A stretch of DNA of 29,434 bases from Candidatus Krumholzibacteriota bacterium (GTDB lineage Bacteria; Krumholzibacteriota; Krumholzibacteriia; LZORAL124-64-63): the NCBI GenBank assembly GCA_039714075.1, contig JBDLKA010000038.1, positions 1-29,434 of the forward strand, given 5' to 3'. Below the pieces are notes generated by a model. The model was given only the letters and a program-made list of their open reading frames with translations, was not told the origin of the DNA and searched no databases. How positions within the stretch are numbered: the stretch's first letter is position 1; every line of letters starts with the position of its first letter. Shown here in pieces: positions 2,423 through 20,989 of the stretch. The position numbers and the translations under genes are program-made.

Positions 2423-2482
2423 AATCGCACTAACATCCCCCGATCGGGTCCGAATTTAACGCTTCCGGGTTCAGGAGTATAC

Positions 2483-5200
2483 ATGGATGCTGGCACCAGT
2501 CTGGCTCATTACGAAATCGTTGCCCGGATCGGCGTCGGCGGCATGGGTGAAGTCTATCGGGCCCGTGACACCAAGCTCGACCGCGACGTGGCGGTAAAGA
2601 TCCTGCCTGAAACCTTCACGGCCCAAACCGACCGTCACGCCCGCTTCCATCGCGAGGCCCAGGCCCTGGCCGCGTTTTCGCATCCCCACGTGGCGGGTAT
2701 CCACAGCATCGAAGAGGACGGCGGCCAGCATTTTCTCGTGATGGAACTCGCCGAGGGCGAAGACCTGTCCCAGCGGTTGACCCGGGGCGCCATCGGTCAG
2801 AAAACCGCCCTGAAAATCGCCTGCCAGATCGCCCTCGCGCTCGAAGCCGCGCAGGAAAAGGGCATCGTCCACCGCGATCTGAAACCCGCCAACATCAAGG
2901 TCGACGACGAGGACCAGGTGAAGATACTGGACTTCGGTCTGGCCAAGATGGTCGCTGATGAAACGACCACCGGGACCGTGGCCCTGGGCGACTCGCCGAC
3001 CCTCACCTCGAACATGACCCGCGAAGGCGTGATCCTGGGCACGGCCGCCTACATGAGCCCTGAACAGACCCGCGGCAAGGCGGTCGACAAGCGGACCGAC
3101 ATCTGGGCCTTCGGCTGCGTGTTGTTCGAGATGCTCACCGGCCGGCCGGCCTTTCCCGGGGAAACCATTTCCGATATCCTGGCGGGCATCATCAAGTCCG
3201 AGCCCGAGTGGGACCGGCTGCCGGGCGACCTGCATCCATCGGTCACCATGCTGTTGCAGCGCTGTCTGAAGAAGAAACCGCGCCAGCGACTGCACGACAT
3301 CGCCGACGCGCGCATCGTCCTGGACGACGTGATGAGCGGCTCCGATTCGGGCATCATCACTTTGGCGGAAATCGAGTCACGTGCGGCAGGCCGGAAAGGC
3401 ATCCCGCTTTGGGTGGGCATCGTCGGGGTGCTGGCGATCGCCGGCCTGGCGGCCAAACTCTGGCTGGGCCCGGCGGAGGTGGTCGATCCACCCGTGCGCC
3501 TGACGAACCTGACCTTCAGCGGCGGGGACTGGGCCCCCACCGCCTCAGCCGACGGCGAACTGGTGGCCTTCACCTCCAACCGCGACGGCATCCCCCGCAT
3601 CTGGCTGAAACAGCTGGCCAGCGGCAGCGAGGTGCCGATCACCGACGGCTCGGACGACCTGCCGCGTTTTTCGCCCGACGGGTCGCAGATCCTCTTCGTC
3701 CGCGACGTGGACAACATGCGCCACCTGTACCGTACCGCCGTGCTGGGCGGACAGATCCGCAAGATCATGAACAACGTCACCGAGGCCGACTGGTCGCCCG
3801 ATGGTTCGCAGGTGGCCTTCCTGCGCATATCGGAACAGGCAACCAGAAACGAGTTTTCCCTGGGCATCGCCGATGTGCAAACCGGCGAAGAGAGGATTCT
3901 GACCACGGTCTCCAACCGCTTGTGCTACGGAATCCGCTGGTCTCCCGACGGCCGCCGCCTCGTCATGACTGAAAACGCGCTCAGCGGCACCCTGGTGGCC
4001 GCCGGTCAACTGGACCTGGTCGACGTGGAAACCGGAGAGATCAGGCAGTTGCCCGTCACCGGCCAGTCCGGTTCGTTCACCGCCGCCCATTGGGCGCCCG
4101 ACGGAAAGTCCTTCCTGGTCGGCAAGACGCAGGAACTGCTTTCACACATCACCGGCCGGCCGGGGTTGTTCATGGAATATTTCCTGGAAACCGAAACGCA
4201 CCGGCCACTGTTCTGGGCCAATTTCCGCATTCCGCAGGGAGGGTGGGGGTTTTCGACCATCGCGGTGCTGAGCGACCGACAGTTGGTCCTGGACCGGTTC
4301 ACCCGGAATGCCATCCTGCAGGAATTCCCCTGGCCCGGCACTGGCGACAGGGATGCGTCCAGGGTCCTGACCACCAGCATGGGATTCGATCGTCAGCCCG
4401 TCTATTCCCCCGACGGCCGGGAGGTGCTGTTCTCCTCGAACCGGAGCGGGAACACCGACCTGTGGTCCGTCGAATTGGCGACGGGCAAAATGAGACAGTT
4501 GACGGATGATCCGGCCCACGACTGGGATCCCGCCTTCTCTCCGGACGGCCAATACATCCTGTGGAGTTCCAGCCGCACCGGACCGCTGGAGATCTGGATG
4601 GCGAACCGCGACGGCAGCGGGGCGCGGCAGATTTCACGGGACGGCGAAGATGCTGAAAACCCGACCATGACCCCCGACGGGCAGTGGATCGTCTACGCCA
4701 GTGCCAACGATGCCAACCTGGGCCTGTGGAAAATCAGGCCCGACGGTTCCGACGCCGTCCAGATCCACCAAGGCAGCGACCTCATTCCCGAGGTCTCCCC
4801 CGATGGCCGCTACGCCCTGTTTTCCATCATCCGCAGCCTGGATTTCGTGATCGAGGTTGTTGACGTGACCAGCGGGGAAACCGTCCCTTTCGCTATTGAA
4901 CTCAAGCTGTCCCAGCGAAACCAGGACGTGGTCTACGGTCGCGCCCGCTGGACGCCCGACGGCAGCGGCATAGTCTATATAGGCCAGGGCACCGATGGCA
5001 CCAGTGGAATCTACGTACAGGATTTCATTCCCGGCCAGGATACCGGAAACACACGCCGACCGGTGGCCGGGTTTTCGGGCCTTTATTCCAGTGAATCCCT
5101 GGGTGTGTCGCCGGACGGCAAAAACCTGGTTGTTTCGACGATCTACAACCGCCAGACCCTGCAAATGGCCGATTTGCTGGACCTGGAGAACTGGCGTTAG
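2483..5200 (+). CDS. Membrane Ser/Thr protein kinase (Hanks type) with extracytoplasmic TolB-like PD40 beta-propeller repeats, about 905 aa
   Basis: Kinase motifs GVGGMGEV, VAVK, HRDLKPAN, DFG, GTAAYMSPEQ and DIWAFG. One TM segment (IPLWVGIVGVLAIAGLA) precedes many F/W-SPDG repeats. Start moved from 2219 to ATG 2483, which has an AGGAG RBS at 2473-2477; the longer ORF overlaps the GH31 gene. Confidence 0.93.
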   Translation: MDAGTSLAHYEIVARIGVGGMGEVYRARDTKLDRDVAVKILPETFTAQTDRHARFHREAQALAAFSHPHVAGIHSIEEDGGQHFLVMELAEGEDLSQRLTRGAIGQKTALKIACQIALALEAAQEKGIVHRDLKPANIKVDDEDQVKILDFGLAKMVADETTTGTVALGDSPTLTSNMTREGVILGTAAYMSPEQTRGKAVDKRTDIWAFGCVLFEMLTGRPAFPGETISDILAGIIKSEPEWDRLPGDLHPSVTMLLQRCLKKKPRQRLHDIADARIVLDDVMSGSDSGIITLAEIESRAAGRKGIPLWVGIVGVLAIAGLAAKLWLGPAEVVDPPVRLTNLTFSGGDWAPTASADGELVAFTSNRDGIPRIWLKQLASGSEVPITDGSDDLPRFSPDGSQILFVRDVDNMRHLYRTAVLGGQIRKIMNNVTEADWSPDGSQVAFLRISEQATRNEFSLGIADVQTGEERILTTVSNRLCYGIRWSPDGRRLVMTENALSGTLVAAGQLDLVDVETGEIRQLPVTGQSGSFTAAHWAPDGKSFLVGKTQELLSHITGRPGLFMEYFLETETHRPLFWANFRIPQGGWGFSTIAVLSDRQLVLDRFTRNAILQEFPWPGTGDRDASRVLTTSMGFDRQPVYSPDGREVLFSSNRSGNTDLWSVELATGKMRQLTDDPAHDWDPAFSPDGQYILWSSSRTGPLEIWMANRDGSGARQISRDGEDAENPTMTPDGQWIVYASANDANLGLWKIRPDGSDAVQIHQGSDLIPEVSPDGRYALFSIIRSLDFVIEVVDVTSGETVPFAIELKLSQRNQDVVYGRARWTPDGSGIVYIGQGTDGTSGIYVQDFIPGQDTGNTRRPVAGFSGLYSSESLGVSPDGKNLVVSTIYNRQTLQMADLLDLENWR

Positions 5201-5334
5201 GCATCCTCGGCTTTTCCCCGACGAATCCTCTCGAAAAATTGCAGTCGGCATGGGTCCATGCTGTGCGTTCCGCACTATCCGAGGAATAATTGGCAACATT
5301 TGGCAATGGAAAGTCCCGCTGTGGATGGCAGTGT

Positions 5335-5357
5335 GGAAATTTACCCACCAAATTTCC
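5335..5357. promoter_or_regulatory. Perfect 8-bp inverted repeat, candidate activator-binding site
   Basis: GGAAATTT-acccacc-AAATTTCC in the intergenic region upstream of the central operon. Confidence 0.4.
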
Positions 5358-5370
5358 GATCACCGGCGGG

Positions 5371-5425
5371 GAGGAACGATAGGGAACCATAAGGAACAAC
5401 AAGGAATCACGAGGAAGGTCCGGAA
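5371..5425 (+). repeat. Five degenerate 10-bp direct repeats with an invariant GGAA core, plus a sixth GGAA
   Basis: gaGGAAcgat/agGGAAccat/aaGGAAcaac/aaGGAAtcac/gaGGAAggtc. GGAA starts at 5373, 5383, 5393, 5403 and 5413, then 5422. Confidence 0.8.
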
Positions 5426-5577
5426 ATCCTGCGCCCGGTTTTTTTGAGGATATTCAAAGCCCAATCCCATCCGGATGATCCTGCCTCAAAGCAACCTCCG
5501 ATGGCCATTAACTTATTATTTTAGAACACTTTCACAATCCAAAACGCCTCCCCCGCACGTACAACGCCGATACTTAG

Positions 5578-5593
5578 TGGCACGCAAATTGAT
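5578..5593 (+). promoter_or_regulatory. Putative sigma54 (-24/-12) promoter of the central operon
   Basis: TGGCACGcaaaTTGAT against consensus TGGCACG-N4-TTGCW, with one mismatch at the -12 C. It lies about 110 nt before the GTG at 5703. Confidence 0.55.
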
Positions 5594-5702
5594 CTTAAGG
5601 GCCCGAAGATTCCCCAGGGTTTCCGGACCCTCGTTGTCTTCGGCTGGGCTGGATATCGTTACCGGCCCGATCCGAGCTTGATTCAACCGGAAGGGAAGCG
5701 CC

Positions 5703-8700
5703 GTGAGGTCGCTAAAATACAAATTCATCATCTTATTGAGCATGGGGCTTGTCGGCATGCTGATGGTACCAACCATTGCGGCCGCCGGTCCCTATACCCA
5801 ACTCCAGGTCCTGCTTCCGGGTGAAACCCCGGCACCGGGCACCCCCAGCGGAAAGACAGGGGTTCCCCTGTCCCAGACCGTGGGCGAATCCTTCACGTTC
5901 CGTGTGCGGGCCGTGGACGACCAGTGGAACCTCGTTACGAGCATCACGGACGTGATCAGTTTCGAATCCTCCGATGCGGTCGCCACCCTGCCTCCGAACA
6001 CCTCCCTGGTCGGGGGGGAATCCTCCCTGTCGGCCACCTTCAACGCGGCCGGATCGTTCACCATTTCGGCGGACGACCAGACGGACCCCACCATTCCGGT
6101 GGGGACCTCCAGCGCCGCCCAGGTGCAGGTCCTGCAGGGTTTCGTTTTCCAGAACATCACCCAGAAGCATACGGACGCGGGGGTGCCGTTCGGGACCTCC
6201 ATCTCCGCGGTGGATCCGGGCGGAAATCCCGTCACCGGATTCAACGGGACGGTCCGGCTCCAGGAGCTGACCAGCTTCGGCGTCGGACGGATCGAACCGG
6301 AGACCGTGACCCTTTCGAACGGTTTCTGGTCCGGCAACGTCACGGTGTACAGGGCGGACGAGACCAACATCAGCAGCGGCAACGTCAACATGTACGTTTT
6401 CCTGGATATCGATCCGGCCAAGAACGGTACCAGTAATCCCTTCGTGGTGCATCCCGGTCCCCTGGCGCGCGTTCAGATCGTCGTGCCGGGCCAGGATCCT
6501 CTTCCGGGCAGCGCTTCGGGCGTGACCGGTACGCCGGCCACCCAGAGCGCCATCCAGGACTTCACCGTGGATATCTTCGCCACGGACAACTGGTGGAACC
6601 CGCTGCCGAGCGCGGACAACATCCGCATCACCTCGAGCGACGCGGCCGCCAGCACACCTGTTACCTCCACGCTCACCGACGGCCACGTTGCGGTGAACCT
6701 GCACCTGGCCACTTTCGGGGCGCAGACCCTCACGGTGGAGGACATGTCCAACGGTTCGGTCCAGGGCATGACCAGCGATCCGATCCAGGTCATCCCGGCC
6801 GGCGCCCATCATTTCGAGGTCGACGCCATCGCCGGTCCGGTGACCGCCGGTGACCCCGCCATGGTGACCATTCGCGCCACCGACGCAGGCGGCAACACCC
6901 TGCCGGACTTCGACGGTAACGCCATCCTGGCGGCCAACACCGGACCGGGCAGCATCAGTCCCGAAGCGCTCACCTTCAGTTCCGGTGTCTGGACGGGTGA
7001 GATCACCTTCCGCGGTGCGGGCAACGCCGTCCAGTTCACCTGTTCGGATTACGCCACGCCGCCCCACCTGGGAACCAGTAATTCCTTCGTCGTCAATCCC
7101 GCGGCCTATACCGGCATGCAGGTTCTTCTGCCCGGCCAGGATCCCCGCGGCGGGACGGAAATCGGCTATACGGGTAATCCCGACGTCCAGGCGGCCGGCA
7201 CCGGGTTTGAAATCCGGGTCCGCGCGGTCGACCAGTACTTCAACCGGGTTCCCGGCATCGGCAGCATGTTCGCCCTGACTTCGACGGACGAGAACATGCT
7301 GTTCCCGGCCGGTCTGGCTCTGACCAACGGCGAAGCCCTGGTTACGGTGACCCTGTACCGGTCCGGGATGCAGACCATTTCCGCCGCCGACTCGGATTCC
7401 GCCGGCATCGAACCGGCCACGTCCAGCGAAGTCGAAGTGACGGCCGGGACGTATACCAACATGCTCATCCTGGCTCCCGGTGAAGAACTTTCCCCCGGGG
7501 CCGAAAACGGACGGAGCGGAACTCCGACCGACCAGTCGATCAACTATGCCTTTACCGTCACGGTCTACGCCACCGACACGTGGTTCAACCCCGTCGGCGG
7601 CGTCACGGACATGGTGACGATCACCTCGGGCGATCCCATGGCCGAACTTCCGGCCGACGGGCCCATGGTCGACGGTATTGCGGACTTCAGCATCCGCCTG
7701 TCCACCGGTGGTTTCCAGCAGATCACCGCGTCGAACGTCACCCAGCCCGCCATGGTGCCCAGCACCACCGAGGTGAAGATGATCTCCAGCGGTTTCCACC
7801 TGGAGGCCGAGATCACACCCACCACGGTCCGGGCGGGAGATACTTTCGACCTGACGGTCAAGGTGACCAACGACGCCGGCAGCGTCATCCAGGAAATCAA
7901 TTCCTCGGTGACGGTCGAAGTGCAGAACGCCTCGACCCAGGATCCTGGTCTGGGCACCCTGGCCAACACCAGTTTCCAGTTGTTGCAGGGACAGCGCACG
8001 ATCGCCGAGACCTACACATACGCCGAGAACATCATCCTGGTGATCACCGATGACGGGGGCAACCTGCCGGCCCGGACCGAGGTTCTCACGGTCGTGCCCG
8101 GCGCGCCTACGGCCCTCCTGCTGAGCAGCAATCCGACCTGGGTCAAGGGTAACAAGACCGCCCAGGTGACGGCACGCGTGGAGGACGACTACCACAACGG
8201 TGTTCCGGCCCAGACGGTCGAGTTCACCCTGCTGACCAGTCTGGGTGTGCTCACGCCTGTCGGCGAACCGACCGACTCGAACGGCGAAACCATGGCTGAA
8301 TACCTGAGTCCGCGTGAGCCCGGTATCGACACCGTGCTCGCCGTGTCCGGGGCCCTGAGCGATACCCTGTATATCGAAACCGCTCTGGTGGACCCCGACG
8401 CGCCTGACGGTTCTTTGACCAATTACCCCAACCCGTTCCACCCGGACGAGACGCCGACCACCATCTCCTACAAGCTCAAGGACAACGCGTCGGTCCGCAT
8501 GCGGATCTACACCCTGAGTGGCGGCCTTGTTCTGGACACCCAGTTCGCCTCCGGCGACGAGGGCGGCAGGGCCGGGGACAACTTTGTGACCTGGGACGGC
8601 CGCAACGGCAACAACGAAAACGTCGCCAGCGGCGGATACATCCTTTTCATCGAAGCCGAAGGCAACGGTGCCACCATGCACGTCATGCGCCGTAAAATCG

Positions 8701-8714
8701 GCGTTGTTTGGTAG
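5703..8714 (+). CDS. Large secreted multi-Ig-like-domain surface protein with a Big_1/invasin-like domain and C-terminal FlgD-Ig/T9SS-like sorting domain, 1003 aa
   Basis: Signal peptide (MRSLKYK...TIAAA). Four repeats of Q(V/I)L-x-PG(E/Q)...G..GTP..Q...F...V.A.D..(W/F)N and two of AG.P....I.A.D.GGN....F.G...GTSN.FVV. Invasin-like VTARVEDDYHNGVPAQTVEF...TDSNG. C-terminal NYPNPF...IYTLSGGLV...WDGRN...ASGGY...RRKIGVVW. Confidence 0.85.
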   Translation: MRSLKYKFIILLSMGLVGMLMVPTIAAAGPYTQLQVLLPGETPAPGTPSGKTGVPLSQTVGESFTFRVRAVDDQWNLVTSITDVISFESSDAVATLPPNTSLVGGESSLSATFNAAGSFTISADDQTDPTIPVGTSSAAQVQVLQGFVFQNITQKHTDAGVPFGTSISAVDPGGNPVTGFNGTVRLQELTSFGVGRIEPETVTLSNGFWSGNVTVYRADETNISSGNVNMYVFLDIDPAKNGTSNPFVVHPGPLARVQIVVPGQDPLPGSASGVTGTPATQSAIQDFTVDIFATDNWWNPLPSADNIRITSSDAAASTPVTSTLTDGHVAVNLHLATFGAQTLTVEDMSNGSVQGMTSDPIQVIPAGAHHFEVDAIAGPVTAGDPAMVTIRATDAGGNTLPDFDGNAILAANTGPGSISPEALTFSSGVWTGEITFRGAGNAVQFTCSDYATPPHLGTSNSFVVNPAAYTGMQVLLPGQDPRGGTEIGYTGNPDVQAAGTGFEIRVRAVDQYFNRVPGIGSMFALTSTDENMLFPAGLALTNGEALVTVTLYRSGMQTISAADSDSAGIEPATSSEVEVTAGTYTNMLILAPGEELSPGAENGRSGTPTDQSINYAFTVTVYATDTWFNPVGGVTDMVTITSGDPMAELPADGPMVDGIADFSIRLSTGGFQQITASNVTQPAMVPSTTEVKMISSGFHLEAEITPTTVRAGDTFDLTVKVTNDAGSVIQEINSSVTVEVQNASTQDPGLGTLANTSFQLLQGQRTIAETYTYAENIILVITDDGGNLPARTEVLTVVPGAPTALLLSSNPTWVKGNKTAQVTARVEDDYHNGVPAQTVEFTLLTSLGVLTPVGEPTDSNGETMAEYLSPREPGIDTVLAVSGALSDTLYIETALVDPDAPDGSLTNYPNPFHPDETPTTISYKLKDNASVRMRIYTLSGGLVLDTQFASGDEGGRAGDNFVTWDGRNGNNENVASGGYILFIEAEGNGATMHVMRRKIGVVW

Positions 8715-8729
8715 AGGCCAGGAGGCGTC

Positions 8730-9989
8730 ATGTTTTACAGCAACAACAAAATGGACATTAAGTCGGCCCTGATCACCTTCCTGGTGGTCGGTTTGGCCCT
8801 GACGATTCCCTGCGGAGCGGGGGCCCAGGACGCGAACAACGGCGTACCTGGTGACTGGCTCTCGCGCTACGCCAGCCCGCGCGCTACCGGTTTGGGCGGC
8901 GCCATGGTCGCGGTCGGGGACGAACCCTCGGCTGCCCTGTGGAACCCCGCCGGCATTTCCTGGCTGCGCCAGAATGAGTTGCAGGTGGGCAGCGTCCGGC
9001 TGTTCGACGATACCTCGATCAACAGTCTGGGTTTCGCCAGGCCTTCGAGCCGGATGCCGAGCCTGGCCTTCAACCTGCTCAGCCTGAAGTCCGGTGAGTT
9101 CGAACGAACCAACGAGCTGAACGAGTCCCTGGGCACCTTCGATGAAGGGGACCTCGTAATGGCCCTGACCGTCGCCCAGGCTCTGACACCCCGGTGGTCG
9201 GTCGGCGCCAACCTCAAGCTGGCCAAGCAGACCGTCGAGGATTTCAGCGGCAGCGGCATGGGCTTCGACCTCGGTATCATGGGGCAGGTGACCGGTGGAT
9301 TGATGATCGGCGCATCCGCTCTCAATCTCGGCGGCCCCAAGATCACCCTGCGGGAAAAGGAAGAGTCCTACGCGAACGAATATCGCGGCGGCCTGGCCCT
9401 CACCATGCTCGAGGGCCGCAGCCTGACCTCGGTGGAGATGGTCCACCGCGACGGCCCGGGCACCCAGCCCAGGGTCGGTACCGAATTCTGGATCCAGTCC
9501 CTGGCCCTGCGTGTCGGGTACTACATCGAAGACATTGCCGCGGGTTTCAGTTACCGCTTCCGCAATGGGCTCCAGTTCGATTACGGCATGGCTGACCACG
9601 AGTTGGGTATGACCCATCGATTCGGACTTAACTACCGTTTCGGCGGATACTACGCGGATTCGAATGCCAATCCCGAGATCTTCTCCCCGACCGGCCAGAA
9701 CCCGGTGACCAAGTTCCTGCTGGCATCCCAGACCAAGGCCGACGCCAAGGACTGGCAGCTGACCATCTGGGACAAGTCCGGCCAGGTCGTCCGCAGCTAC
9801 GCGGGCCAGGGCAATCCGCCCGCCCACGTGATCTGGGACGGCAAGGGCGAGACCGGTATGCCGCTGCCGGACGGAAAATACCGCTACCAGCTGCGCGTGA
9901 CCGACCTCGATGGACGGATCATGGAAGGTCTGGAGCGCACAGTGGAAATCAGCACCGGCGGTCCCAGCGGATCGATCGGTGTCCAGTAG
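8730..9989 (+). CDS. PorV/PorQ-family (FadL-like) outer-membrane beta-barrel with a C-terminal FlgD-Ig-like domain, 419 aa
   Basis: GGAGG RBS and signal peptide. PorV-family hallmark SPRATGLGGAMVAVGDEPSAALWNPAG, plus SVGANLK, FDLG, NLG, LALRVGY and a terminal strand THRFGLNYRF. This is followed by IFSP...WQLTIWDKSGQVVRSY...WDGK...PDGKYRY. Confidence 0.82.
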   Translation: MFYSNNKMDIKSALITFLVVGLALTIPCGAGAQDANNGVPGDWLSRYASPRATGLGGAMVAVGDEPSAALWNPAGISWLRQNELQVGSVRLFDDTSINSLGFARPSSRMPSLAFNLLSLKSGEFERTNELNESLGTFDEGDLVMALTVAQALTPRWSVGANLKLAKQTVEDFSGSGMGFDLGIMGQVTGGLMIGASALNLGGPKITLREKEESYANEYRGGLALTMLEGRSLTSVEMVHRDGPGTQPRVGTEFWIQSLALRVGYYIEDIAAGFSYRFRNGLQFDYGMADHELGMTHRFGLNYRFGGYYADSNANPEIFSPTGQNPVTKFLLASQTKADAKDWQLTIWDKSGQVVRSYAGQGNPPAHVIWDGKGETGMPLPDGKYRYQLRVTDLDGRIMEGLERTVEISTGGPSGSIGVQ

Positions 9990-10024
9990 GCAACCCGGAT
10001 AAACCCGGGTAAGGAGACAAGAAG

Positions 10025-13000
10025 ATGTTGCGCATAGAGTTCAAATCCATCGTTTCTGTCTGGCTTGGAGCCATGGTGGCGGCTGTCCTGCTGTCGCCGG
10101 CTCCGGTCCGGGCCGAAACCGAGGAAGTGGAAGCGGAAGCGGAAGCGGAAGCGAAACCCGTGGCCACCCTGACCAGTCTGGGTCTGGAACTGGAGACGAT
10201 CCGCTTCGCGGCCTCGATGGGTGACCAGGCGGCAGCCGAGGCGCTGGCCCGCACCTATTCCGGCCTGGACGGTGATCTGATTCCCGAGGGGGCCGAGGCC
10301 GCGGCCGCCCTCCTCTGGGGCCGGATCAACCAGGAAAGAGGAACGTACGGGAAAGCTTCATCCGCCTATGCCGAAGCCGCAGACAAGGCCTCGGACCGGG
10401 GTTTGCGAGCCGCCGCCGAGTTCCTGGAAATCGCCTCCCGGGAGGCCGAGGGAAAGGATGAAGAGGCCGCGAAATCGTGGTTCAAGTGGATGGGTGAATA
10501 CCCGGACCACGCCCTGGCCCCCGACGCCCGCCTGCATCTGGCCTGGAACCGGTTGCGCAGGGGCGAGGTGTCAGCGGCCGCGGGCGACCTGATCAACCTC
10601 AGGGAAAACAACCCCTGGCTGGGCGAGGACCCGCGCCACTTCATCGGCCTGGCGACCTCGCACTACCTGTTGGGTGAATACGACCAGGCCCTGGCCATCG
10701 TCAGGGACCGGTCGCAGGATCCCGAGGCCATCTATCTCCGCGCCCTGATCCACCAGACCCAGGGCAACAACCTGAAGGCCGCCGCGGCCTTTCAGGAGGT
10801 TTCGGACCGCTTCGGGCACTCCCCGCTGCACGACATCGCACTGCTGGCCAAGGCGAACACCTTCCTGGCCAGCCAGGCCTACCGGAGCGCGGCCGAGGAA
10901 TTCGGCCGGGTTACGGAACGCGCCTCGGACCCGGCCGTGGTCGCCGAAGCGGGATTGCGTCGGGCCGCATCCGTCTTCATGTACGGCGACCTGCCGACCG
11001 CCGAAGTCCTGCTTCGGGAAGTCGTCGCCGCCAACACCGCTTCGGACGTCGGCGCCCGCGCCCAGTTCCTCCTCGGCGAGGTCATGGTCGCGGCGGACGA
11101 TTACGACGCGGCCATCCTGGAATACAACCGCGTCCTGACTTCCTATTTCGACCAGGGAGTGGCGGCCAGCGCCCAGTATCGTCTCGGACGCTGCTTCGAC
11201 GCCCTCGATCGACCCTTCGACGCGACCAGCGCCTACCAGGCCGTCGTCTCGGGCTACCCTCTGGAACCCGAAGCCCCCGCCGCTGCTTATCTGGCCGGCG
11301 CCGGGCTGTTGTCCATGGGCAAACCCCGGCTGGCCGTACCGTATTTCCAGCTGGTCCTGGACCGCTACGCCAGCAACGAGGACAGCGACGGCACGATCGT
11401 ATTCGCTTCCGCCGAGCACCAGGAACTGGCCGAGGCCTCCCTGTGCCTGCTGGAATGGTCCTATCACCAGACCAATGACCTGGGGCAGTTGACGGGCGCG
11501 CCGCACCTGATGCTCCAGAAGACCCCGCCCAGCCAGTCGACCTGGCGGGCCTATGCCCTCTTGATCGATGCCGACGCCCTGGCCGCCCAGGGTCAGCATC
11601 AGAAAGCCCGCGAAAGCCTGGAAAATCTTTTCCGGGAATTTCCCGAACACCCCTCCTCGCCGTCGGCCAAACAGCTGCTGGCCTGGACCTACGCCCAGCA
11701 GGGTGAGGAAGACCTGGCCATCCAAACCTCCGAGGACATGCTGGCCAGCGGGATGACCACGGGCGACCCCGAACAGCTGGCCGGCGCCTTCCTGAACGTG
11801 GCGCACGTCCGGTTCAATCAGGGCCGGTACGACGAGGCCGCGTCCGCCTACGAGGAATTCCTGACCCGTTATCCGTCCCACGAGCACCGGAATCTCGCTC
11901 TGTACCAGGCCGGGTTGAGCTACCTCCGCCTGGACCGTGCCGGAGATGCGGTCGATCGCTGGGAAACCATCGTCAGGACCGAACCCGATATCGAAATCGC
12001 CGAGAAAGCCTGGGCCAGGGCGGGCGACCTGTATTTCCAGGCCGATGAGTACGTCGAGGCCCAGCGCTGCTATCAGGGGTTGCTGGAAAACTTCGCCGGC
12101 AGTTCCGCCTCGGCCCTCGGCCTGCTGAGGATCGCGCAGTGTGATTACAACGCCGGTCGGGATGCCGAAGCCCTGGCCGGGTATTCCGAGCTGGTCGGCA
12201 CTTATCCCGACAGTCCCATGGCCCGGGAAGCGGAACGGGGCATCGAGATGGCCCTGTACCGTCTGGGCCAGAACGCCGAGGGCGTGGACCAGCTGGCGCA
12301 ACTGGTGGAGCTCTACCCCACCAGTTCCTTCGCCGCGGACGCCCAGTTCCAGATCGCCAAGAAGTTGTACGAGCAGGAACGCTATCTCGACGCCGCCGAC
12401 GAGTTCCGGCGCGTCGTCAGCCAGTTCCCCGGCTACTCGGCCGCGGACAGGGCCCAGTTCCTGATGGGCGACGCCTACGCCATGGCCGAGAACGACGACC
12501 AGGCCCAGCAGGCGTTCGAGCAGTTCCTGGTCTTCTTCGGTGAAAGCGGTCTGCGCACCACCGTCCGGTTCCGCCTGGGAATGAACTATTTCCAACAGGC
12601 CGAGTATTTCCGGGCGGCCACGAATTTCACGGACGTTCTCGAGAAGGATCCCGAGGGCGACATGGCCAAGGCGTCACTATACAACCTGGCCCTGTGCCGG
12701 CGGTTGATGGGCAGCCACGCCGAAGCCGCGGTTGAATTCGCGCGGTACCGGGAACGGTACGCGGGCGACGAACGGGCGGCCGAGGTGGCCTTCCAGCTGG
12801 GCGACATCCACGATCTCGCCGGCCGGACCGACGAAGCCGTCACGGAGCTGGAGAAGGCTCTTGCCGCCGGACCGGGCTCCGACCTCAAAACCGAGATCCA
12901 TTATCGGCTGGGCGCCTGCAAGGAAAAGCTCGCCGATCGGACCGGGGCCCTGGCGGCCTACGCGAAGGCCGCGGCCAGCAAACGGAAATCCGATCCCTTC

Positions 13001-13162
13001 AGGCTGTCGGCCATCGCGCGCAGCGCCGGTCTCTACGAAGAGGCCGAGCAATATCCCCAGGCCCTGGAAGCCTACCGGGATCTGATGGACAACTCCGAGG
13101 ATCCGGAACTTGTCGCCGCGGCGACCGGCCGGGCCTCGGAACTGGAAGCGGTAATCAAGTAG
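10025..13162 (+). CDS. Large exported tetratricopeptide-repeat protein (YbgF/BamD-like TPR units), 1045 aa
   Basis: AAGGAG RBS and signal peptide ending VRA. Tandem TPRs throughout, for example AQFLLGEV, AQYRLGRCF, ALYQAGLSY, AQFQIAKKLY and SLYNLALC, with many 'YP.S' linkers. Confidence 0.9.
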   Translation: MLRIEFKSIVSVWLGAMVAAVLLSPAPVRAETEEVEAEAEAEAKPVATLTSLGLELETIRFAASMGDQAAAEALARTYSGLDGDLIPEGAEAAAALLWGRINQERGTYGKASSAYAEAADKASDRGLRAAAEFLEIASREAEGKDEEAAKSWFKWMGEYPDHALAPDARLHLAWNRLRRGEVSAAAGDLINLRENNPWLGEDPRHFIGLATSHYLLGEYDQALAIVRDRSQDPEAIYLRALIHQTQGNNLKAAAAFQEVSDRFGHSPLHDIALLAKANTFLASQAYRSAAEEFGRVTERASDPAVVAEAGLRRAASVFMYGDLPTAEVLLREVVAANTASDVGARAQFLLGEVMVAADDYDAAILEYNRVLTSYFDQGVAASAQYRLGRCFDALDRPFDATSAYQAVVSGYPLEPEAPAAAYLAGAGLLSMGKPRLAVPYFQLVLDRYASNEDSDGTIVFASAEHQELAEASLCLLEWSYHQTNDLGQLTGAPHLMLQKTPPSQSTWRAYALLIDADALAAQGQHQKARESLENLFREFPEHPSSPSAKQLLAWTYAQQGEEDLAIQTSEDMLASGMTTGDPEQLAGAFLNVAHVRFNQGRYDEAASAYEEFLTRYPSHEHRNLALYQAGLSYLRLDRAGDAVDRWETIVRTEPDIEIAEKAWARAGDLYFQADEYVEAQRCYQGLLENFAGSSASALGLLRIAQCDYNAGRDAEALAGYSELVGTYPDSPMAREAERGIEMALYRLGQNAEGVDQLAQLVELYPTSSFAADAQFQIAKKLYEQERYLDAADEFRRVVSQFPGYSAADRAQFLMGDAYAMAENDDQAQQAFEQFLVFFGESGLRTTVRFRLGMNYFQQAEYFRAATNFTDVLEKDPEGDMAKASLYNLALCRRLMGSHAEAAVEFARYRERYAGDERAAEVAFQLGDIHDLAGRTDEAVTELEKALAAGPGSDLKTEIHYRLGACKEKLADRTGALAAYAKAAASKRKSDPFRLSAIARSAGLYEEAEQYPQALEAYRDLMDNSEDPELVAAATGRASELEAVIK
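10124..10153 (+). repeat. In-frame hexamer tandem repeat GAAGTG(GAAGCG)x4 encoding EVEAEAEAEA
   Basis: Read directly from the sequence, immediately after the TPR protein's signal peptide. Confidence 0.85.
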
Positions 13163-13199
13163 CGTCGAAACTTCGGGTCATTCATATAAGGAGTGCGAC

Positions 13200-13928
13200 A
13201 TGTTCGTCGAGTTCGATTGGATGGGAGCCATGACCGAGAGTCCCATATTGATGGTGCTTTTCGGCTGCAGTGTGATCACCTTCGGGATTGCTCTCGAGCG
13301 CCTGTATTATTTCCGCAAGCGCGCGGGTAATGCCGACCTGGTCCTGGTGGAGGCCCTCGAGGCCCTGCGCAAGGGCCAAGTCAGCGAAGCCATTGCCCAT
13401 TGCCGGAAAAGCAAGCATCCGGTCGGGACGGTTGCGGCCCAGACCATGGAATGCCAGCTGTCCCGCCCCGCGGACACGGAAGAGACCATGCAGGTGGCGC
13501 TCAGCCAGCAGAAGATGCTGCTCGAGCGCAGCACCGGAACCCTGGGCACCATGGCGGCGATCGCGCCGTTGATCGGGCTGCTCGGAACGGTCTGGGGCAT
13601 CATGCGGGCCTTCCATAGCATGGCCCTGACCGGTTCGGCCGCACCCTCGGTCGTGGCCGCCGGTGTGGCGGAAGCCCTGGTCACCACGGCCGCCGGCCTG
13701 GTCATCGCGGTTCCGGCCGTGCTTCTGTTCAACCATTTCACCCGCCGGGTGAACATCATGCTGACCGTTTCGGAAAACCATTCCCGCAGCCTGCGGATCG
13801 CACTGATCGAAGCCGTGGCGGCCGATTCCGGTCCTTCAGCCAAATCCGGCAGAAGGTCCTCGGGGATGGATTCCGAACTCCGCAAACAGGAACCGGTGTC
13901 CCGGGAACCGGTCGGCAGCCTGGTCTGA
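13200..13928 (+). CDS. exbB: MotA/TolQ/ExbB proton channel family protein
   Basis: Three TM segments with motifs LGTMAAIAPLIGLLGTVWGIMRAF and GVAEALVTTAAGLVIAVPA. AAGGAG RBS. Confidence 0.93.
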   Translation: MFVEFDWMGAMTESPILMVLFGCSVITFGIALERLYYFRKRAGNADLVLVEALEALRKGQVSEAIAHCRKSKHPVGTVAAQTMECQLSRPADTEETMQVALSQQKMLLERSTGTLGTMAAIAPLIGLLGTVWGIMRAFHSMALTGSAAPSVVAAGVAEALVTTAAGLVIAVPAVLLFNHFTRRVNIMLTVSENHSRSLRIALIEAVAADSGPSAKSGRRSSGMDSELRKQEPVSREPVGSLV

Positions 13929-13938
13929 AGGAGCACGC

Positions 13939-14349
13939 ATGCGTTGGAACCGTGAACAGGACAGCAACGATTCGATGTCGGACGTCAACATGACGCCGCT
14001 GATCGACGTGTCCCTGGTGCTGGTGGTCATTCTGCTGCTGGCCACGCCGCTGGCCTTCGAATCCAGTTTCGGGGTCAGAAAGACCTCGGACTCGGCCCGC
14101 AAGGCCAGCAACGTGGAAAAAGAAGCGAGGATCGAGCTGGCCATAGAATCCGACAGCTCGGTTCGGGTGAACCGGACCGCGGTCATGATCGATGACCTGG
14201 GCAAGACCCTGGTCCCCCTTCTCGCCGAGAGCACGTCCAGGGACGTTACCGTCACCTGCGGCGACGAGGTGGCCCACGGCACCTTCGTCCATGTGCTGGA
14301 CGTTACGAAACTGAGCGGGGCGAAGGAAATCGCCATCGCCGGGAGCTGA
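13939..14349 (+). CDS. exbD: ExbD/TolR family protein (copy 1)
   Basis: VNMTPLIDVSLVLVVI retains the conserved TM Asp. Periplasmic domain V.V..D......V.VLD..K.SG. Confidence 0.9.
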   Translation: MRWNREQDSNDSMSDVNMTPLIDVSLVLVVILLLATPLAFESSFGVRKTSDSARKASNVEKEARIELAIESDSSVRVNRTAVMIDDLGKTLVPLLAESTSRDVTVTCGDEVAHGTFVHVLDVTKLSGAKEIAIAGS

Positions 14350-14350
14350 T

Positions 14351-14779
14351 ATGCGCACACCCTTGGTAAACCGGACCCCGACGATGACCAAGATCAACGT
14401 CACGCCCATTATTGACGTGGCCCTGGTGCTGGTCATCATCCTGCTGATCACCGCGCCCATGCTCTCGGTCGCCGACCTCGAGGTCGAGCTGCCGAGCGCC
14501 CATTCGCGCGATGTCGAGGATCAGGGGTTCATCAGCATCACCCTGAGTCATTCCGGCGAGATCGCCGTGGATGAACAGGTACTGGCGGGTATCGGGCAGA
14601 TCCGGTCAGCGCTGCGGACGCGGATCGCGGAGCAGGAAAGCGATAAGGCCATGGTCGTCGTGCGCGCCGATTCCGGCCTGCCCCATTCCCTGATCCGCCA
14701 GGTCCTCGATGAAGCCCGCCGCGGCGGTGCGAAACAATTGGGCATCGCGACCCGCCAGAAGGGAGGCGGAAGCTCGTGA
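14351..14779 (+). CDS. exbD: ExbD/TolR family protein (copy 2)
   Basis: INVTPIIDVALVLVIILLITAPM, VELP and VVVRAD...VLDEARRGG. Confidence 0.92.
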   Translation: MRTPLVNRTPTMTKINVTPIIDVALVLVIILLITAPMLSVADLEVELPSAHSRDVEDQGFISITLSHSGEIAVDEQVLAGIGQIRSALRTRIAEQESDKAMVVVRADSGLPHSLIRQVLDEARRGGAKQLGIATRQKGGGSS

Positions 14780-15708
14780 GCACCATCACCCTCAACCATG
14801 AAATAACCGCCAGCAAGGAACGAATCCAGCGGACCCTGACGATCAGTCTCCTGGTTCATCTGGTTCTGTTCGCCCTGCTGATCCTGCGGAACGAAATCCT
14901 CCCGGAACCGGAGGGGATCGTGGAAATCGCCTGGCTGGATCCTGATCCGGCCCCCGCCCCTCCGGCCCCTGTTCCGGTCCAGGCGAAGCCCGTACCCGTA
15001 GCGGCGAAAACACCCGTGGCGCCCTCCCCGACGGAGGAGAAGTTCGAGCGCCGGCTGGAAAGAGCCGTCGTCGAGCCGACGCCCCAGGAACAGACCGCCA
15101 ACCGTGACCGGATCAAGGAAAGGGTCGCCGCCCTGTCCGCCACGACTTTGCCCAACAGCGCCCTGACTGCTGGCCCGCGATCGTCCAATTCGCTGTTGCA
15201 GGCCGCCCCGTCCGCGGTGCCGGACCCCGGTCCGAACACCCCCGCGGTCGATCTGAAGCGGCAGACGAGTTCCCGACCACAGCCCGCGCCCCTGAAACGG
15301 GGTCCTGTGACGACGAAGCGGTCTGCTCCCGCCCTGGCCACGGTCCCGCGGGAAAAGCCCACCGCCTCGGCGGCGGCCCCCAACATGGACGCGGTGGCCC
15401 GGCGCACCCTGGAAGGAGCCGAGCTGGCTGGTGAAATCGCCAACCGTCCGGTGGTCCGGCACACGATGCCGGCCTATCCGGAATGGGCCAAGAGCCAGGC
15501 GGTCGAGGCCACGGTGACTTTGTATTTCGTCGTTCTGCCGGACGGCCGGGTGAAGGAAAACATCCAGATCCAGAAGACCGCCGGTTTTTCCGATTTCGAC
15601 AACAGCGCCATCGAGGCTCTTGCCCAGTGGCGCTTCCAGGCCCTGTCCGGAGGGGCGTCCCAGGAGCAATGGGGCACCATCACCTTCCGGTTCCGGCTGC
15701 GAAACTAG
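14776..15708 (+). CDS. tonB: TonB family energy transducer
   Basis: N-terminal TM with SLLVH (S-x3-H motif), Pro/Ala-rich linker, and TonB C-terminal domain PAYPEWAK...VTLYFVVLPDGRV...FDNSAIEALAQWRF...ITFRF. GTGA overlap with the second exbD. Confidence 0.9.
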   Translation: MSTITLNHEITASKERIQRTLTISLLVHLVLFALLILRNEILPEPEGIVEIAWLDPDPAPAPPAPVPVQAKPVPVAAKTPVAPSPTEEKFERRLERAVVEPTPQEQTANRDRIKERVAALSATTLPNSALTAGPRSSNSLLQAAPSAVPDPGPNTPAVDLKRQTSSRPQPAPLKRGPVTTKRSAPALATVPREKPTASAAAPNMDAVARRTLEGAELAGEIANRPVVRHTMPAYPEWAKSQAVEATVTLYFVVLPDGRVKENIQIQKTAGFSDFDNSAIEALAQWRFQALSGGASQEQWGTITFRFRLRN

Positions 15709-15740
15709 TCCAACCCACCGAAGGGACCAGGAGTGGCATC

Positions 15741-16721
15741 ATGAAGACACGCGAGTTCACACCATATCAAGCCATCAGCCGTCCGGCGATTTGCCTGGCT
15801 GTGGCCCTGGCTTTGGCGGCCGGCCCCGGTCTGGCGAACGAAACGACGGCCCCGGAAGCTTCCGCCGATTCGAGCATGGCCCTTGAAGGCGGACAGGACG
15901 GAACGGTGTTCAAAAGCCTGACCATCGAGGGGGAAAACCGGGTCAAGATAACCTTCGAGCGGCCCAATCTGGCCCTCGATATCGACCCGTCGCTGGCTCC
16001 CGGCCTGGCCTTGGGGAATTCCATGGACGTGCTGAATCGCACGATTACCGATCTGGATACCCCGCTGCTGGAGACCTCTCCGCACTTCCGGTCTCCCCAC
16101 CAGGTCCGTCCCTGGCTGACCGCCTATGAAACCGGACCGGTGGCGACCTTCAAATTCGACCTGGAAAGCGTCCATCGCTGGACCCTGCTGGTAGTGGATT
16201 CCCGGGGCCAGGAAATCACCCAGTTCCAGGGAAAAAAGAACCCCCCGCGGGAGATTCCCTGGGACGGCCGCGGCCAGGACGGTTCGCCGGCCAAACCGGG
16301 CCTGACCTATTCCTATGTCCTGGAAGCCTTCGACAAGGCGGGCAACCGGCGGCGTTTCGTCGGTGAAGGATTCCAGTTGCAGGCCTATCGCAGGGACCAT
16401 GACGGGGGCCAGGAATTCATGATCTCCGGAGCCCAATGGAAAAAGGCCGCGGCGCAGACCCGTCCTGTTCCCTCGGCTTACCTTCTGGAAACCGCCAGTT
16501 GGATCAACCTGAAGACCGGCACCGGAGATCCGGTCCTGATCAGGGCAACCGCGGGAACCTATGCCGAGGCTCAGGCTCTGGGCGACGCGGTGGCCAAGGA
16601 ACTCAGACCCCTGATCCCGGGTGACGAAGTCCGGGTTGCGGTATCCGCCGTTGCCGAGCCGGGGGCGCCCGGTGAGGGCATCCTGCACATCCTGGCCGGA
16701 AGCCCGGCCGAAACGGAATAG
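15741..16721 (+). CDS. Exported hypothetical protein with a central FlgD-Ig-like domain and a possibly degenerate OmpA-like C-terminal domain, 326 aa
   Basis: Start moved to ATG 15741 (AGGAG RBS at 15729) and a signal peptide ending GLA. WTLLVVDSRGQ...PPREIPWDGR..DG...YSYVLEAFDKAGN resembles the C-domain of 8730-9989. The OmpA-like call rests only on the helix/strand pattern. Confidence 0.72.
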   Translation: MKTREFTPYQAISRPAICLAVALALAAGPGLANETTAPEASADSSMALEGGQDGTVFKSLTIEGENRVKITFERPNLALDIDPSLAPGLALGNSMDVLNRTITDLDTPLLETSPHFRSPHQVRPWLTAYETGPVATFKFDLESVHRWTLLVVDSRGQEITQFQGKKNPPREIPWDGRGQDGSPAKPGLTYSYVLEAFDKAGNRRRFVGEGFQLQAYRRDHDGGQEFMISGAQWKKAAAQTRPVPSAYLLETASWINLKTGTGDPVLIRATAGTYAEAQALGDAVAKELRPLIPGDEVRVAVSAVAEPGAPGEGILHILAGSPAETE

Positions 16722-16743
16722 TCCAAACCAACCTGATAGGAAT

Positions 16744-16774
16744 AAGGGCCCCGGGAAAACCCGGGGCCCTTCTT
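16744..16774. terminator. Intrinsic terminator between convergent genes, probably bidirectional
   Basis: Perfect 12-bp stem AAGGGCCCCGGG-aaaa-CCCGGGGCCCTT with T/A-rich flanks. Confidence 0.85.
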
Positions 16775-16796
16775 GTCATTTATCGTCAGTAACGGT

Positions 16797-17969
16797 CTAC
16801 TTCAGCAGCAGCAACGGCTGCGAATCGCCCTGGCCCGATCCCGCGCCCAGGACCCGGCAGAAATAGGCTCCGCTGGGCACCCGGCTCCCCGCATTCCCCA
16901 CTCCGTTCCACTGCACCCGATGGTCGCCCGCGGTGCGGTCTTCGTTCAGCAGGGTGCGGACCAGCTTGCCGTCGACGGCAAAGATCTCGACCCGGATCGG
17001 ACCCGAGCGGGTCAGGGAAAAGTCGATGGTGGTCGTCGGATTGAAGGGATTCGGATAGATGCTGGCGATGCTCACCACCGGACCGGCCGTCGGCAGGCCG
17101 TCCTCCACGCCGCTGATGACGCCCTGGAAAATAAAGGCCACGAATTCGGGGTGGTCAATGAACGGGTTCCGGTTGCCCTGGTAGGCGTGGACGATGTCGT
17201 TGCGGTTGCGCTCCCGGTCATCCACCGGATCTTCGTTGTGCCACTGGATCAGGGTCTGCAACAGGCCCATGTAGCCCACCGAGGCGTTGCCGCTGGTGAC
17301 CAGGATCAGGCTGGGGTTGTCGGTCAGGATCAGATCGGGTTCGGCGCCCGCGTCACCCGCATACCGGACATCCGCGTAGAACTGGGCCCGGGCCACGTCG
17401 CCGCGGCGGCTGCTCCAGGTTTCCCACGCCACGGTGTTCCGGTAGTTGGTGCCCGACTGCCCGTTGTAGTTGTCCGTCGGGTAACTGGAGCACCCGGAGA
17501 CGCAATCGTCATAATAATTGTTGCTGCGGGAGCTGTTGTAGCCGTCGTCGCACAGCATCAGCATATGACAGTCCGAATAGGCCAGGTTGGTCGATCCGTC
17601 ATCGGGGAAACCGTAGCTCTTGGGCCAGGTGTGCTCCCGGTTGTATTCGTTGTTGCCCGCGCCGTATTTCTGGAAGGTGCGGTTCCGGTACACATCGATG
17701 ATCCGGCCGGAATCGTTGGGATCCTCGTCGGCCAGTTCCAGCACGTTCCAGGTGTCGGTGGCGGAAGACGTATAGGGAATCTTCGTATGCCCGTCGATGA
17801 TGTTGTGCACGGTGGCCCGTACGGTCGCGGGGCTGGTGTAGTCGACCGTGTCGTAATAACCGGCAGGAGGGTCGGCAATGGCGCCGGTGAAAGCGAAAGC
17901 CACTGCCAGAAACACACATACACGGGCCGAAGCCTTGTCCAAGAGCGATGATTTGGTCAGCGTCAGCAC
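16797..17969 (-). CDS. Secreted endonuclease I family nuclease (EndA/Bsn-like) with FlgD-Ig/T9SS-like CTD, 390 aa
   Basis: YNREHTWPKS, D.H.L, NSSRSN, RGDVARA.FY..VRY, WH..DPVD..E..RN and QGNRNPFIDHPE. C-terminal YPNPFNP.T.I...G.Y....LLLK. Signal peptide present. Confidence 0.92.
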   Translation of the reverse strand: MLTLTKSSLLDKASARVCVFLAVAFAFTGAIADPPAGYYDTVDYTSPATVRATVHNIIDGHTKIPYTSSATDTWNVLELADEDPNDSGRIIDVYRNRTFQKYGAGNNEYNREHTWPKSYGFPDDGSTNLAYSDCHMLMLCDDGYNSSRSNNYYDDCVSGCSSYPTDNYNGQSGTNYRNTVAWETWSSRRGDVARAQFYADVRYAGDAGAEPDLILTDNPSLILVTSGNASVGYMGLLQTLIQWHNEDPVDDRERNRNDIVHAYQGNRNPFIDHPEFVAFIFQGVISGVEDGLPTAGPVVSIASIYPNPFNPTTTIDFSLTRSGPIRVEIFAVDGKLVRTLLNEDRTAGDHRVQWNGVGNAGSRVPSGAYFCRVLGAGSGQGDSQPLLLLK

Positions 17970-18033
17970 CGGAATCCCCTGTCCTTTTTGAGTGTCCTCT
18001 TACCTGTTCCAAGCCCCGTCTTACAATAGGTCA

Positions 18034-18061
18034 ATAATAACAGGTCAGGCCTCATATTCAA
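18034..18061 (-). promoter_or_regulatory. Putative sigma70 promoter for the nuclease gene
   Basis: Minus strand reads TTGAAT-16 nt-TATTAT with an extended -10 TGn. Confidence 0.45.
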
Positions 18062-18097
18062 AATAGAGAACCCCGCCTCCCGAAGAAAGCGGGGCTT
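18062..18097 (-). terminator. Intrinsic terminator after the two SWGSVKAL genes
   Basis: Minus strand AGCCCCGC-TTTC-TTCG-GGAG-GCGGGGTT forms a stem with a c(UUCG)g loop, followed by CTCTATTT. Confidence 0.7.
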
Positions 18098-18118
18098 CCC
18101 ACTGAATATGATTGCGAT

Positions 18119-18742: not shown

Positions 18743-18787
18743 GTTACATCCTCCAAAGTTGAAAAGACGCCCTAGGCGCCCAGAATC

Positions 18788-20984: not shown

Positions 20985-20989
20985 AGGCG

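Follow-up and report, generated by a model that had tools for sequence, protein, structure and literature searches.

An eight-gene operon of a Candidatus Krumholzibacteriota bacterium joins a Ton-type motor to a PorV-family barrel and a surface protein with a type IX secretion-like sorting domain

We analyzed a stretch of 29,434 nucleotides (nt), here called the window, which covers positions 1–29,434 of contig JBDLKA010000038.1 (C38) in the 4.06-Mb metagenome-assembled genome of a Candidatus Krumholzibacteriota bacterium (GCA_039714075.1, 92% complete). Eight open reading frames (ORFs), all on the + strand, fill positions 5703–16721. In order, they encode a surface protein with a C-terminal sorting domain (CTD) like those found in type IX secretion systems (T9SS) (g1), a PorV/PorQ-family outer-membrane barrel (g2), a giant tetratricopeptide repeat (TPR) protein (g3), an ExbB/TolQ-family stator subunit (g4), two ExbD/TolR paralogues (g5 and g6), a TonB/TolA-like transducer (g7), and a protein with FlgD-Ig and OmpA-like parts (g8). 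The operon consists of known parts in an undescribed combination that is real and strongly conserved; full-text literature searches, which did not extend to subscription journals and supplements, returned no paper describing this gene set. On balance, we favor the reading that the eight genes specify one accessory, sigma-54-regulated, envelope-spanning machine that moves or gates a displayed surface protein.

Conservation of the gene set speaks for this reading. A profile of g2 recovered 80 loci from contigs representing one genome per species, 40 of which had room for the whole eight-gene set; a gene was counted as present at a query coverage of at least 50%. All eight genes were colinear in 37 of the 40 loci with enough flank. 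The syntenic loci came from different species at 40–60% protein identity, and the nearest public relatives (g2 80–84% identical) are labelled Candidatus Krumholzibacteriia. Adjacency of individual genes ranged from 49/53 to 59/60 loci, g2 lying beside g3–g8 in 48/49 to 59/60 of those with room, and g3 itself being present in 59 of the 60 loci with room for it. In one locus (L094), g7 was retained at 40% coverage.

The same set was found again in a more distant form. A g8 query matched 134 of the 208 genomes of the same phylum (86/125 among the near-complete ones), and the matches fell into two groups: orthologues at 37–73% identity and a second group at 25–30%. Five loci of the weaker group were inspected (L104–L108, from genomes G125, G164, G167, G095, and G105). 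Four of them held all eight genes in the same order, and the fifth, L106, held six genes with no ExbD match. Identities between the cassette and this type-II version are low, at roughly 25–40% (g2 ~33%, g3 ~24%, g8 ~27%), and some genomes carry both types. A second, diverged eight-gene version in the same order indicates, at the level of sequence, that the entire cassette was duplicated long ago and has been kept as a unit. Beyond the phylum, a second GTDB phylum (labelled Eisenbacteria at NCBI) has g8 in 68 of 206 genomes, a figure that takes in the unpublished genome G284, and a third has it in 2 of 7. The original prediction had called for the synteny of the eight genes to be checked, and both the 37 loci and the diverged second cassette show them as a conserved unit. 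That the unit is conserved supports a functional coupling of the Ton-type motor to the CTD protein and the PorV-like barrel.

The genes are tightly packed. From g1 to g6, the successive intergenic gaps are 15, 35, 37, 10, and 1 nt; g6 and g7 overlap by 4 nt, and the gap between g7 and g8 is 32 nt when g8 starts at the ATG at 15741. Were g8 read as its longest ORF, from 15483, the overlap with tonB would amount to 226 nt. A sigma-54-type –24/–12 promoter element (TGGCAC-N5-TTGAT, 5578–5593, +) lies 125 nt upstream of the g1 start. The core of this element, TGGCAC-N5-TTG (5578–5591), occurs once in the window, where 0.24 matches would be expected by chance. Across species, 33 of 54 loci carry GGCAY-N6-YGC at a distance of 90–230 nt upstream of g1, as against 3.6% of random windows, and 46 of 54 carry a looser –24/–12 form, as against 8.7%. 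No sigma-70-like site was found within the 500-nt spacer upstream of g1 (5200–5702). Given this conserved element, transcription of the operon is probably sigma-54-dependent. At the other end lies an intrinsic terminator (16744–16781, +), in which a hairpin at 16744–16771 with a 12-bp stem (10 G-C pairs) and a 4-nt loop precedes a T-rich tail; it is the strongest of 16 terminator-like candidates in 5200–17000. The ORF list and the terminator scan thus confirm the earlier description of eight same-strand genes with short gaps and a strong terminator, and Pfam and NCBIfam scans likewise confirmed its domain calls and gene order. Two elements go beyond that description, namely the sigma-54-type element in front of the operon and a C-terminal FlgD-Ig domain on g2 itself.

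The first gene, g1 (5703–8714, +), encodes an exported Ig-repeat protein of 1003 amino acids (aa) with a signal peptide, in which Pfam recognized Big_1 and FlgD_ig. Its C-terminal beta-sandwich (about residues 905–1003) has a YPNPF motif and resembles a T9SS type-A CTD. Models of PorZ, PorU, and M6i matched this region with their CTD portions (E values of 1e-6 to 1e-7). A neighboring endonuclease, which itself passes the TIGR04183 model, has a CTD that shares 34% identity with it (E 4e-11). Residues 1–700 gave weak Ig-like hints only (Pfam at E up to 10). A PDB sequence search with g1 returned no match at E up to 1, and a search of the ESM Atlas returned its own family and Ig/CTD families only. 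Among the eight proteins, g1 has the highest mean identity (58%), spread evenly along its length, a pattern more in keeping with a machine part than with an adhesin that evolves fast.

The product of g2 (8730–9989, +; 419 aa) was assigned to the PorV/PorQ family of outer-membrane barrels by a hidden Markov model, a PDB profile match, and its predicted fold. It consists of a 14-strand barrel (residues ~82–304), the FlgD-Ig domain (~327–407), and a conserved tail. The protein scored 96.8 bits on the PorV_fam model NF033709 (cut-off 90), or 92.2 bits in a six-frame search of the genome, and its profile matched the PorV chain 6h3i_F in the PDB at E 6e-9. In the AlphaFold2 (AF2) model (predicted local distance difference test, pLDDT, 86.5), 14 long strands are followed by the FlgD-Ig domain. 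A Foldseek search with this model placed Flavobacterium johnsoniae PorV at ranks 1–2 (8gl6_F, E 7.5e-10; 6h3i_F), followed by FadL/TodX, as the earlier claim of a PorV/FadL-like barrel had anticipated. g2 also keeps the N-terminal region of the family with its WNPAG motif. In a barrel with an even number of strands, both termini point into the periplasm, and the FlgD-Ig domain of g2 is therefore probably periplasmic.

That domain has a counterpart in g8 (15741–16721, +), since the Ig domains of g2 and g8 are paralogous (38% identical, E 6e-11). g8 is an exported protein of 326 aa with a conserved motif at residues ~50–80 of a disordered N-terminus, which is among the best conserved parts of the protein, a FlgD-Ig domain at 130–213, and an OmpA/MotB-C-like region at 215–322. 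The earlier call of a FlgD-Ig/OmpA-like fold stands, with the FlgD-Ig part recognized by Pfam and the OmpA/MotB-C-like part by fold only; the length is corrected from 412 to 326 aa. The AF2 model of g8 (pLDDT 78.6) shows the beta-alpha-beta-alpha-beta-beta fold of OmpA_C/MotB_C domains. VIA-align gave Z scores of 9–11 to the type VI secretion system anchors TagL/TssL, MotB, PomB, and OmpA-like domains (9.0–10.9 over about 100–119 aligned residues to 4b62, 6x65, 3s03, 3oon, and 3wpw), and of 7.3–7.4 to two Pal chains. The protein has no lipobox, and a PDB search with its profile gave chance-level matches only. The conserved C-terminal tail of g2 and the N-terminal motif of g8 are candidate docking peptides for TPR or TonB_C domains.

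We also noted a wider family around g8. Against 1.84 billion representatives, its profile gave 2269 matches at E up to 0.001; past ~60 full-length relatives, the list fills with giant proteins that hold multiple FlgD-Ig domains. Many of these 1000–4000-aa proteins (P0133–P0270) carry 7–29 FlgD-Ig repeats, and some end in a match to the Ig plus OmpA-like part of g8. On these sequence matches, the Ig–OmpA-like domain pair recurs in giant envelope proteins.

Between the barrel gene and g8 lie the scaffold and motor genes. g3 (10025–13162, +) encodes an exported protein of 1045 aa with many YbgF/CpoB- and BamD-like repeats and a Sec signal peptide but no lipobox. g4 (13200–13928, +; 242 aa) matched MotA_ExbB (PF01618) at E 1e-31. 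g5 (13939–14349, +; 136 aa) and g6 (14351–14779, +; 142 aa) both match PF02472 and are 30% identical to each other, and the proton-binding transmembrane Asp is kept in 57/57 orthologues of g5 and 55/56 of g6. g7 (14776–15708, +; 310 aa; PF03544, E 1.2e-15) has an N-terminal transmembrane helix, a Pro/Ala-rich linker, and a TonB_C domain at 232–308, and Ser24 and His28 in the helix are invariant in a 46-sequence alignment. g4–g7 thus have the features of a Ton-type motor: a MotA_ExbB protein, ExbD proteins that keep the transmembrane Asp, and a Ser/His motif in the transmembrane helix of the TonB_C protein. Scores on equivalog models stayed below the cut-offs for g4 (TolQ 111 vs 221 bits, ExbB 93.6 vs 206 bits) and for the ExbD/TolR type (ExbD at most 47.8 for the operon proteins vs a cut-off of 153 or more, TolR 80.5 vs 127). 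BLAST against the host paralogues placed g4–g7 clearly with neither Tol nor Ton; the best host paralogue of g4 is TolQ (40% identity over 124 residues). Domain scans of the eight proteins found no Plug or TonB-dependent receptor domain, and, as originally claimed, none of the eight ORFs matched a TonB-dependent receptor, TolB/Pal, or GldKLMN family.

From these parts we infer a working model; the inference extends to every protein-protein contact, to a CTD that stays in place, to the location of the g2 Ig domain in the periplasm (as barrel topology suggests), and to the output. At the inner membrane, ExbB (g4) and a heterodimer of the g5 and g6 ExbD proteins would convert proton flow into force. 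This force would act on g7, whose C-terminal domain would reach the outer membrane. There, the PorQ/PorV-like barrel g2 would form the outer-membrane module, with its periplasmic FlgD-Ig domain probably pairing with the Ig domain of g8. The OmpA-like domain of g8 would probably tie the module to the cell wall, and g3 would serve as a periplasmic scaffold. g1 may be exported by the ordinary T9SS of the host, its CTD then staying bound to its own barrel g2 and keeping g1 on the cell, in the manner of PorZ on PorQ and PorU on PorV. If g1 is so held, the motor would pull on, move, or gate the displayed g1, with adhesion or motility, unmasking, and uptake as candidate outputs. The closest working analogue would be the Agl-Glt core with its outer-membrane platform.

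In Myxococcus, the excerpted account of the Agl-Glt core lists a TolQ-like protein, two TolR-like proteins, the TonB-like GltG, and the 1191-aa exported TPR protein GltD (Luciano et al., 2011, PMC3169522). To move the cell, that core is linked with barrels of the outer membrane and with a surface adhesin (PMC3169522). The resemblance to Agl-Glt proposed at the outset fits in the composition of the motor and TPR genes. In both cases, a TolQ/ExbB-like protein, two TolR/ExbD-like proteins, a TonB_C transducer, and a signal-peptide-bearing TPR protein of ~1100 aa are encoded together (aglR, aglQ, aglS, gltD, gltE, gltG, and gltC in Myxococcus and its relatives). Unlike its Agl-Glt counterpart, g7 has no FHA domain, and the outer-membrane part here consists of a PorV/PorQ-family barrel, a T9SS-type cargo, and an OmpA-like protein, which are absent from Glt. 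The lineages are FCB-type (Fibrobacteres–Chlorobi–Bacteroidetes) candidate phyla and not Myxococcota or Gammaproteobacteria.

The outer-membrane half has its nearest likeness in the T9SS, where a CTD gene likewise adjoins a PorV-family barrel gene (PorZ–PorQ, PorU–PorV, type-B cargo–PorP/SprF, and PG1035–PorP–PorE). T9SS work, as far as the excerpts of PMC10202324 go, describes the PorV-like 14-strand barrel as an anchor or shuttle and not a translocon, the CTD of PorZ on PorQ and PorU on PorV as retained to anchor the protein, cargo genes as clustering with their cognate PorP/SprF barrels, and PorE as adding TPR and OmpA-like wall-binding parts to such a pair. With g3 and g8, the operon resembles PG1035–PorP–PorE in particular. 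The known pairs, however, are neither encoded with an ExbB-ExbD-TonB motor nor known to use one, and g2 differs in its extra FlgD-Ig domain, probably periplasmic, and in failing the PorV and PorQ equivalog cut-offs. A recent study of TolQR-type motors, in the text available, interprets PorE as a fusion of CpoB, TolB, and Pal that might rely on a TonB/TolA-like protein (PMC12204202); the operon described here has a gene for such a protein among its eight. The same text (Williams-Jones et al., 2025, PMC12204202) describes TPR-tolQ-tolR-tolR-transducer operons with vWA-headed transducers, for which a role in powering an envelope process is proposed. These share the TPR, TolQ/TolR/TolR, and transducer composition of the motor half described here, but the head domain here is TonB_C and not vWA. 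The available text of PMC12204202 contains no occurrence of PorV, PorQ, or FadL, and does not cover these phyla.

Several observations weigh against the reading of the operon as one such machine. Two of the 40 testable loci break the unit. L029, from a complete genome, has no g1 at the locus and carries a 54%-identical g1 ~293 kb away. In L035, g3 is truncated at about 375 aa, and the place of the motor genes is taken by ~10 kb of small ORFs on mixed strands (11178–21149), which may reflect an insertion or a misassembly. The CTD of g1 falls below the curated cut-offs (TIGR04183, 16.8 vs 23; FlgD_ig, 25.8 vs 27), and g2 fails both equivalog models (PorV NF033710, 24.4 vs 250; PorQ NF033711, 85.3 vs 220). 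g8 gave no match to OmpA (PF00691) even at E up to 10, and the usual OmpA peptidoglycan-binding motif was not evident by eye, leaving wall binding uncertain. With the Glt/Agl family models, a weak AgmX/PglI tail match on g7 was the only one (21.8 bits vs 40). The usual partners of TonB proteins are TonB-dependent transporters; eight Plug-domain matches lie elsewhere in the host genome, and g7 could serve those. Lastly, the host is flagellated, so a motility role is not required.

What else the host encodes bears on the alternatives. Its T9SS parts include SprA, a PorU–PorV pair (the PorV candidate adjoins PorU on contig C19), six or more paralogues of the PorV family, and over 50 CTD matches. 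Across the phylum, SprA is over cut-off in 128/128 genomes that are at least 90% complete. Without a positive control for the models, GldM and GldL gave nothing over cut-off in the host and GldK reached 76 bits against 350; GldN was not searched. The GldL model, again without a positive control, was over cut-off in 0/128 near-complete genomes of the phylum. Four host contigs with FGE-sulfatase-like matches showed no gldK-L-M-N-like row, as judged by ORF sizes and strands only. A search of the host with models for SprA, PorU, and the Gld proteins, suggested at the outset, therefore found the first two and, subject to the missing control, not GldK, GldL, or GldM. Either divergence hides the T9SS motor of this phylum from detection, or secretion here has another source of power. 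The host also has a complete TolQ-TolR-TolA-TolB-Pal-CpoB locus on contig C63, and its further motors are MotAB in a flagellar cluster, two TonB2-like loci, and ExbB-ExbD beside a BamG-like gene.

A second host cluster also joins a PorV-family barrel to a Ton motor (C41:1–11550, locus L097). It encodes, in order, a TonB-dependent-receptor-like barrel (1023 aa), a protein with a PorZ-like CTD (973 aa), a PorV_fam barrel (328 aa, 178 bits), a GWxTD-domain protein (582 aa), ExbB, two ExbD proteins, and TonB. The GWxTD protein occurs in 118/128 near-complete genomes of the phylum, often 45–90 kb from sprA on the same contig. At C73:2715–6502 (locus L098), ExbB-ExbD precede an uncharacterized protein of 478 aa, a protein resembling BamG (94 bits, under the cut-off), and one with TPRs, with no recognizable TonB.

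The original prediction had gone further and proposed that the Ton-type motor replaces GldLM, exporting or releasing the CTD cargo through or from the PorV-like barrel. The absence of GldL, GldM, and GldK matches over cut-off, with GldL in 0/128 genomes where SprA is in 128/128, would suit such a dedicated device, and Oar/PopC of Myxococcus, in the excerpted account, offers a precedent for TonB-dependent protein export (PMC6434023). However, the operon is accessory (86/125), and the five near-complete genomes without g8 that were inspected, in which the g8 profile finds only Ig-domain fragments, all have SprA (5/5). The operon is therefore not a general T9SS motor, a role ruled out by its presence in 86/125 near-complete genomes against 128/128 for SprA. 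In addition, the host has its own PorU–PorV, the Gld searches had no positive control, and a 14-strand barrel, going by the g2 model, would be too narrow for a folded 100-kDa protein. We hence regard a dedicated export or release device as quite improbable. Of the earlier reading as a whole, the coupling of the motor to the CTD protein and barrel is upheld by synteny, and the replacement of GldLM for export is not supported, given among other things the accessory distribution.

Somewhat less improbable, though still unlikely, is TonB-powered uptake, in which g2 would be a FadL-type channel with an N-terminal hatch opened by the TonB-like protein and g1 would capture substrate, as in SusCD/RagAB-type complexes. 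Import through TonB-dependent transporters is the textbook role of ExbB-ExbD-TonB, the best structural matches of g2 after PorV are the FadL, TodX, and TbuX transporters, its N-terminal WNPAG region is retained, and the C41 cluster brings a receptor-like barrel together with a CTD protein, a PorV-family barrel, and ExbB-ExbD-ExbD-TonB. Such an uptake system would nevertheless lack any Plug or TonB-dependent receptor in its operon and any binding or catalytic domain recognizable by Pfam in g1, and the 1045-aa TPR protein and the OmpA-like protein are untypical of uptake loci. Moreover, we know of no FadL-family channel that needs TonB and of no PorV-family protein with a shown transport role. 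Close behind in our estimation, and also unlikely, comes a second, specialized Tol-Pal-like system for envelope integrity or division, where the motor and a TolA-like g7 would manage a tether of g2 and g8 (as a Pal analogue) with a CpoB-like TPR protein, and g1 would be a passenger. In common with Tol-Pal, the operon has a stator like TolQ, proteins like TolR, a transducer of the TolA/TonB kind, g3 with 11 stretches that match the YbgF/CpoB model, and a periplasmic protein with an OmpA/Pal fold (g8), with g4 scoring highest on TolQ and finding in TolQ its best host paralogue. The proposal that PorE, seen as a fusion of CpoB, TolB, and Pal, might rely on a TonB/TolA-like protein points the same way (PMC12204202, text available in part). 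What sets the operon apart from Tol-Pal is that it has neither TolB nor a Pal lipoprotein, is missing from ~31% of near-complete genomes, and includes a barrel and a highly conserved surface protein, g1, that this explanation leaves unaccounted for; the canonical locus on C63 is complete, which rules out the operon as the Tol-Pal system of the host.

Finally, the operon might be two unrelated neighboring modules, a cargo–barrel pair and a TPR–Ton motor set serving TonB-dependent receptors elsewhere. The unlinked g1 of one complete genome and the missing motor part of L035 would fit such a split. It sits poorly with the adjacency of g2 to g3–g8 in nearly every locus with room, with a cassette duplicated in its entirety and kept together down to about 25–35% identity, with paralogous Ig domains in g2 and g8, which would belong to separate modules, and with a single promoter and a single terminator framing all eight genes. 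We consider this the least probable of the alternatives, and a very improbable one.

The genes that flank the operon in the window were also examined. Directly upstream, 2219–5200 (+) encodes a Ser/Thr protein kinase (993 aa) fused to PD40/TolB-like beta-propeller repeats, which is not kept beside the operon in most relatives. An endonuclease I gene (16797–17969, –) and an M1 aminopeptidase gene (21400–24165, –) are ordinary T9SS cargo genes, and the CTDs of both products pass TIGR04183. For most of its length, a 1064-aa ORF at 22138–25332 (+) merely shadows the M1 peptidase gene in antisense (G+C at third codon positions, 0.65 vs 0.83), and only its last part (~24430–25332) is a real DUF1028 match (E 3.7e-72) with TPR. 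The G+C content drops to 0.53 at 18788–20000, compared with ~0.63 elsewhere in the window; a 338-aa ORF inside this stretch (18788–19804, –) had no family match in domain scans.

The known tasks of ExbB/TolQ/MotA-family motors are import (Ton), the upkeep of envelope integrity (Tol-Pal), flagellar rotation, and gliding in myxobacteria. Which other processes they energize has been posed as an open question (PMC12204202, in the text available). For the machine favored here, strict synteny ties a Ton-type motor to a PorV-family barrel and a T9SS-type surface protein in at least three phyla and through an ancient duplication, and the defined set of eight proteins of fixed sizes provides a test bed for TonB-like arms that act on barrels other than TonB-dependent transporters. 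The host also sharpens the question of what energizes type IX secretion outside Bacteroidota, with SprA, PorU, and PorV present and GldL/GldM not detected. More tentatively, and with less confidence than in the machine itself, the operon could represent an unrecognized class of proton-driven surface machine, in which a T9SS-delivered protein sits on a PorQ-like barrel that is driven by a stator of the Ton/Agl type and a TonB-like arm, for gliding, adhesion, or force-gated exposure. Bolder still, Ton-type motors encoded with PorV-family barrels, as in the operon and the possibly near-universal C41-type cluster, may in this phylum take over jobs that belong to GldLM in Bacteroidota. If such a class of machine exists, it would be a second, independent case, alongside Agl-Glt, in which a motor of the TolQR family has been united with a surface adhesin, and the first link of TonB-type force transduction to the PorV family.

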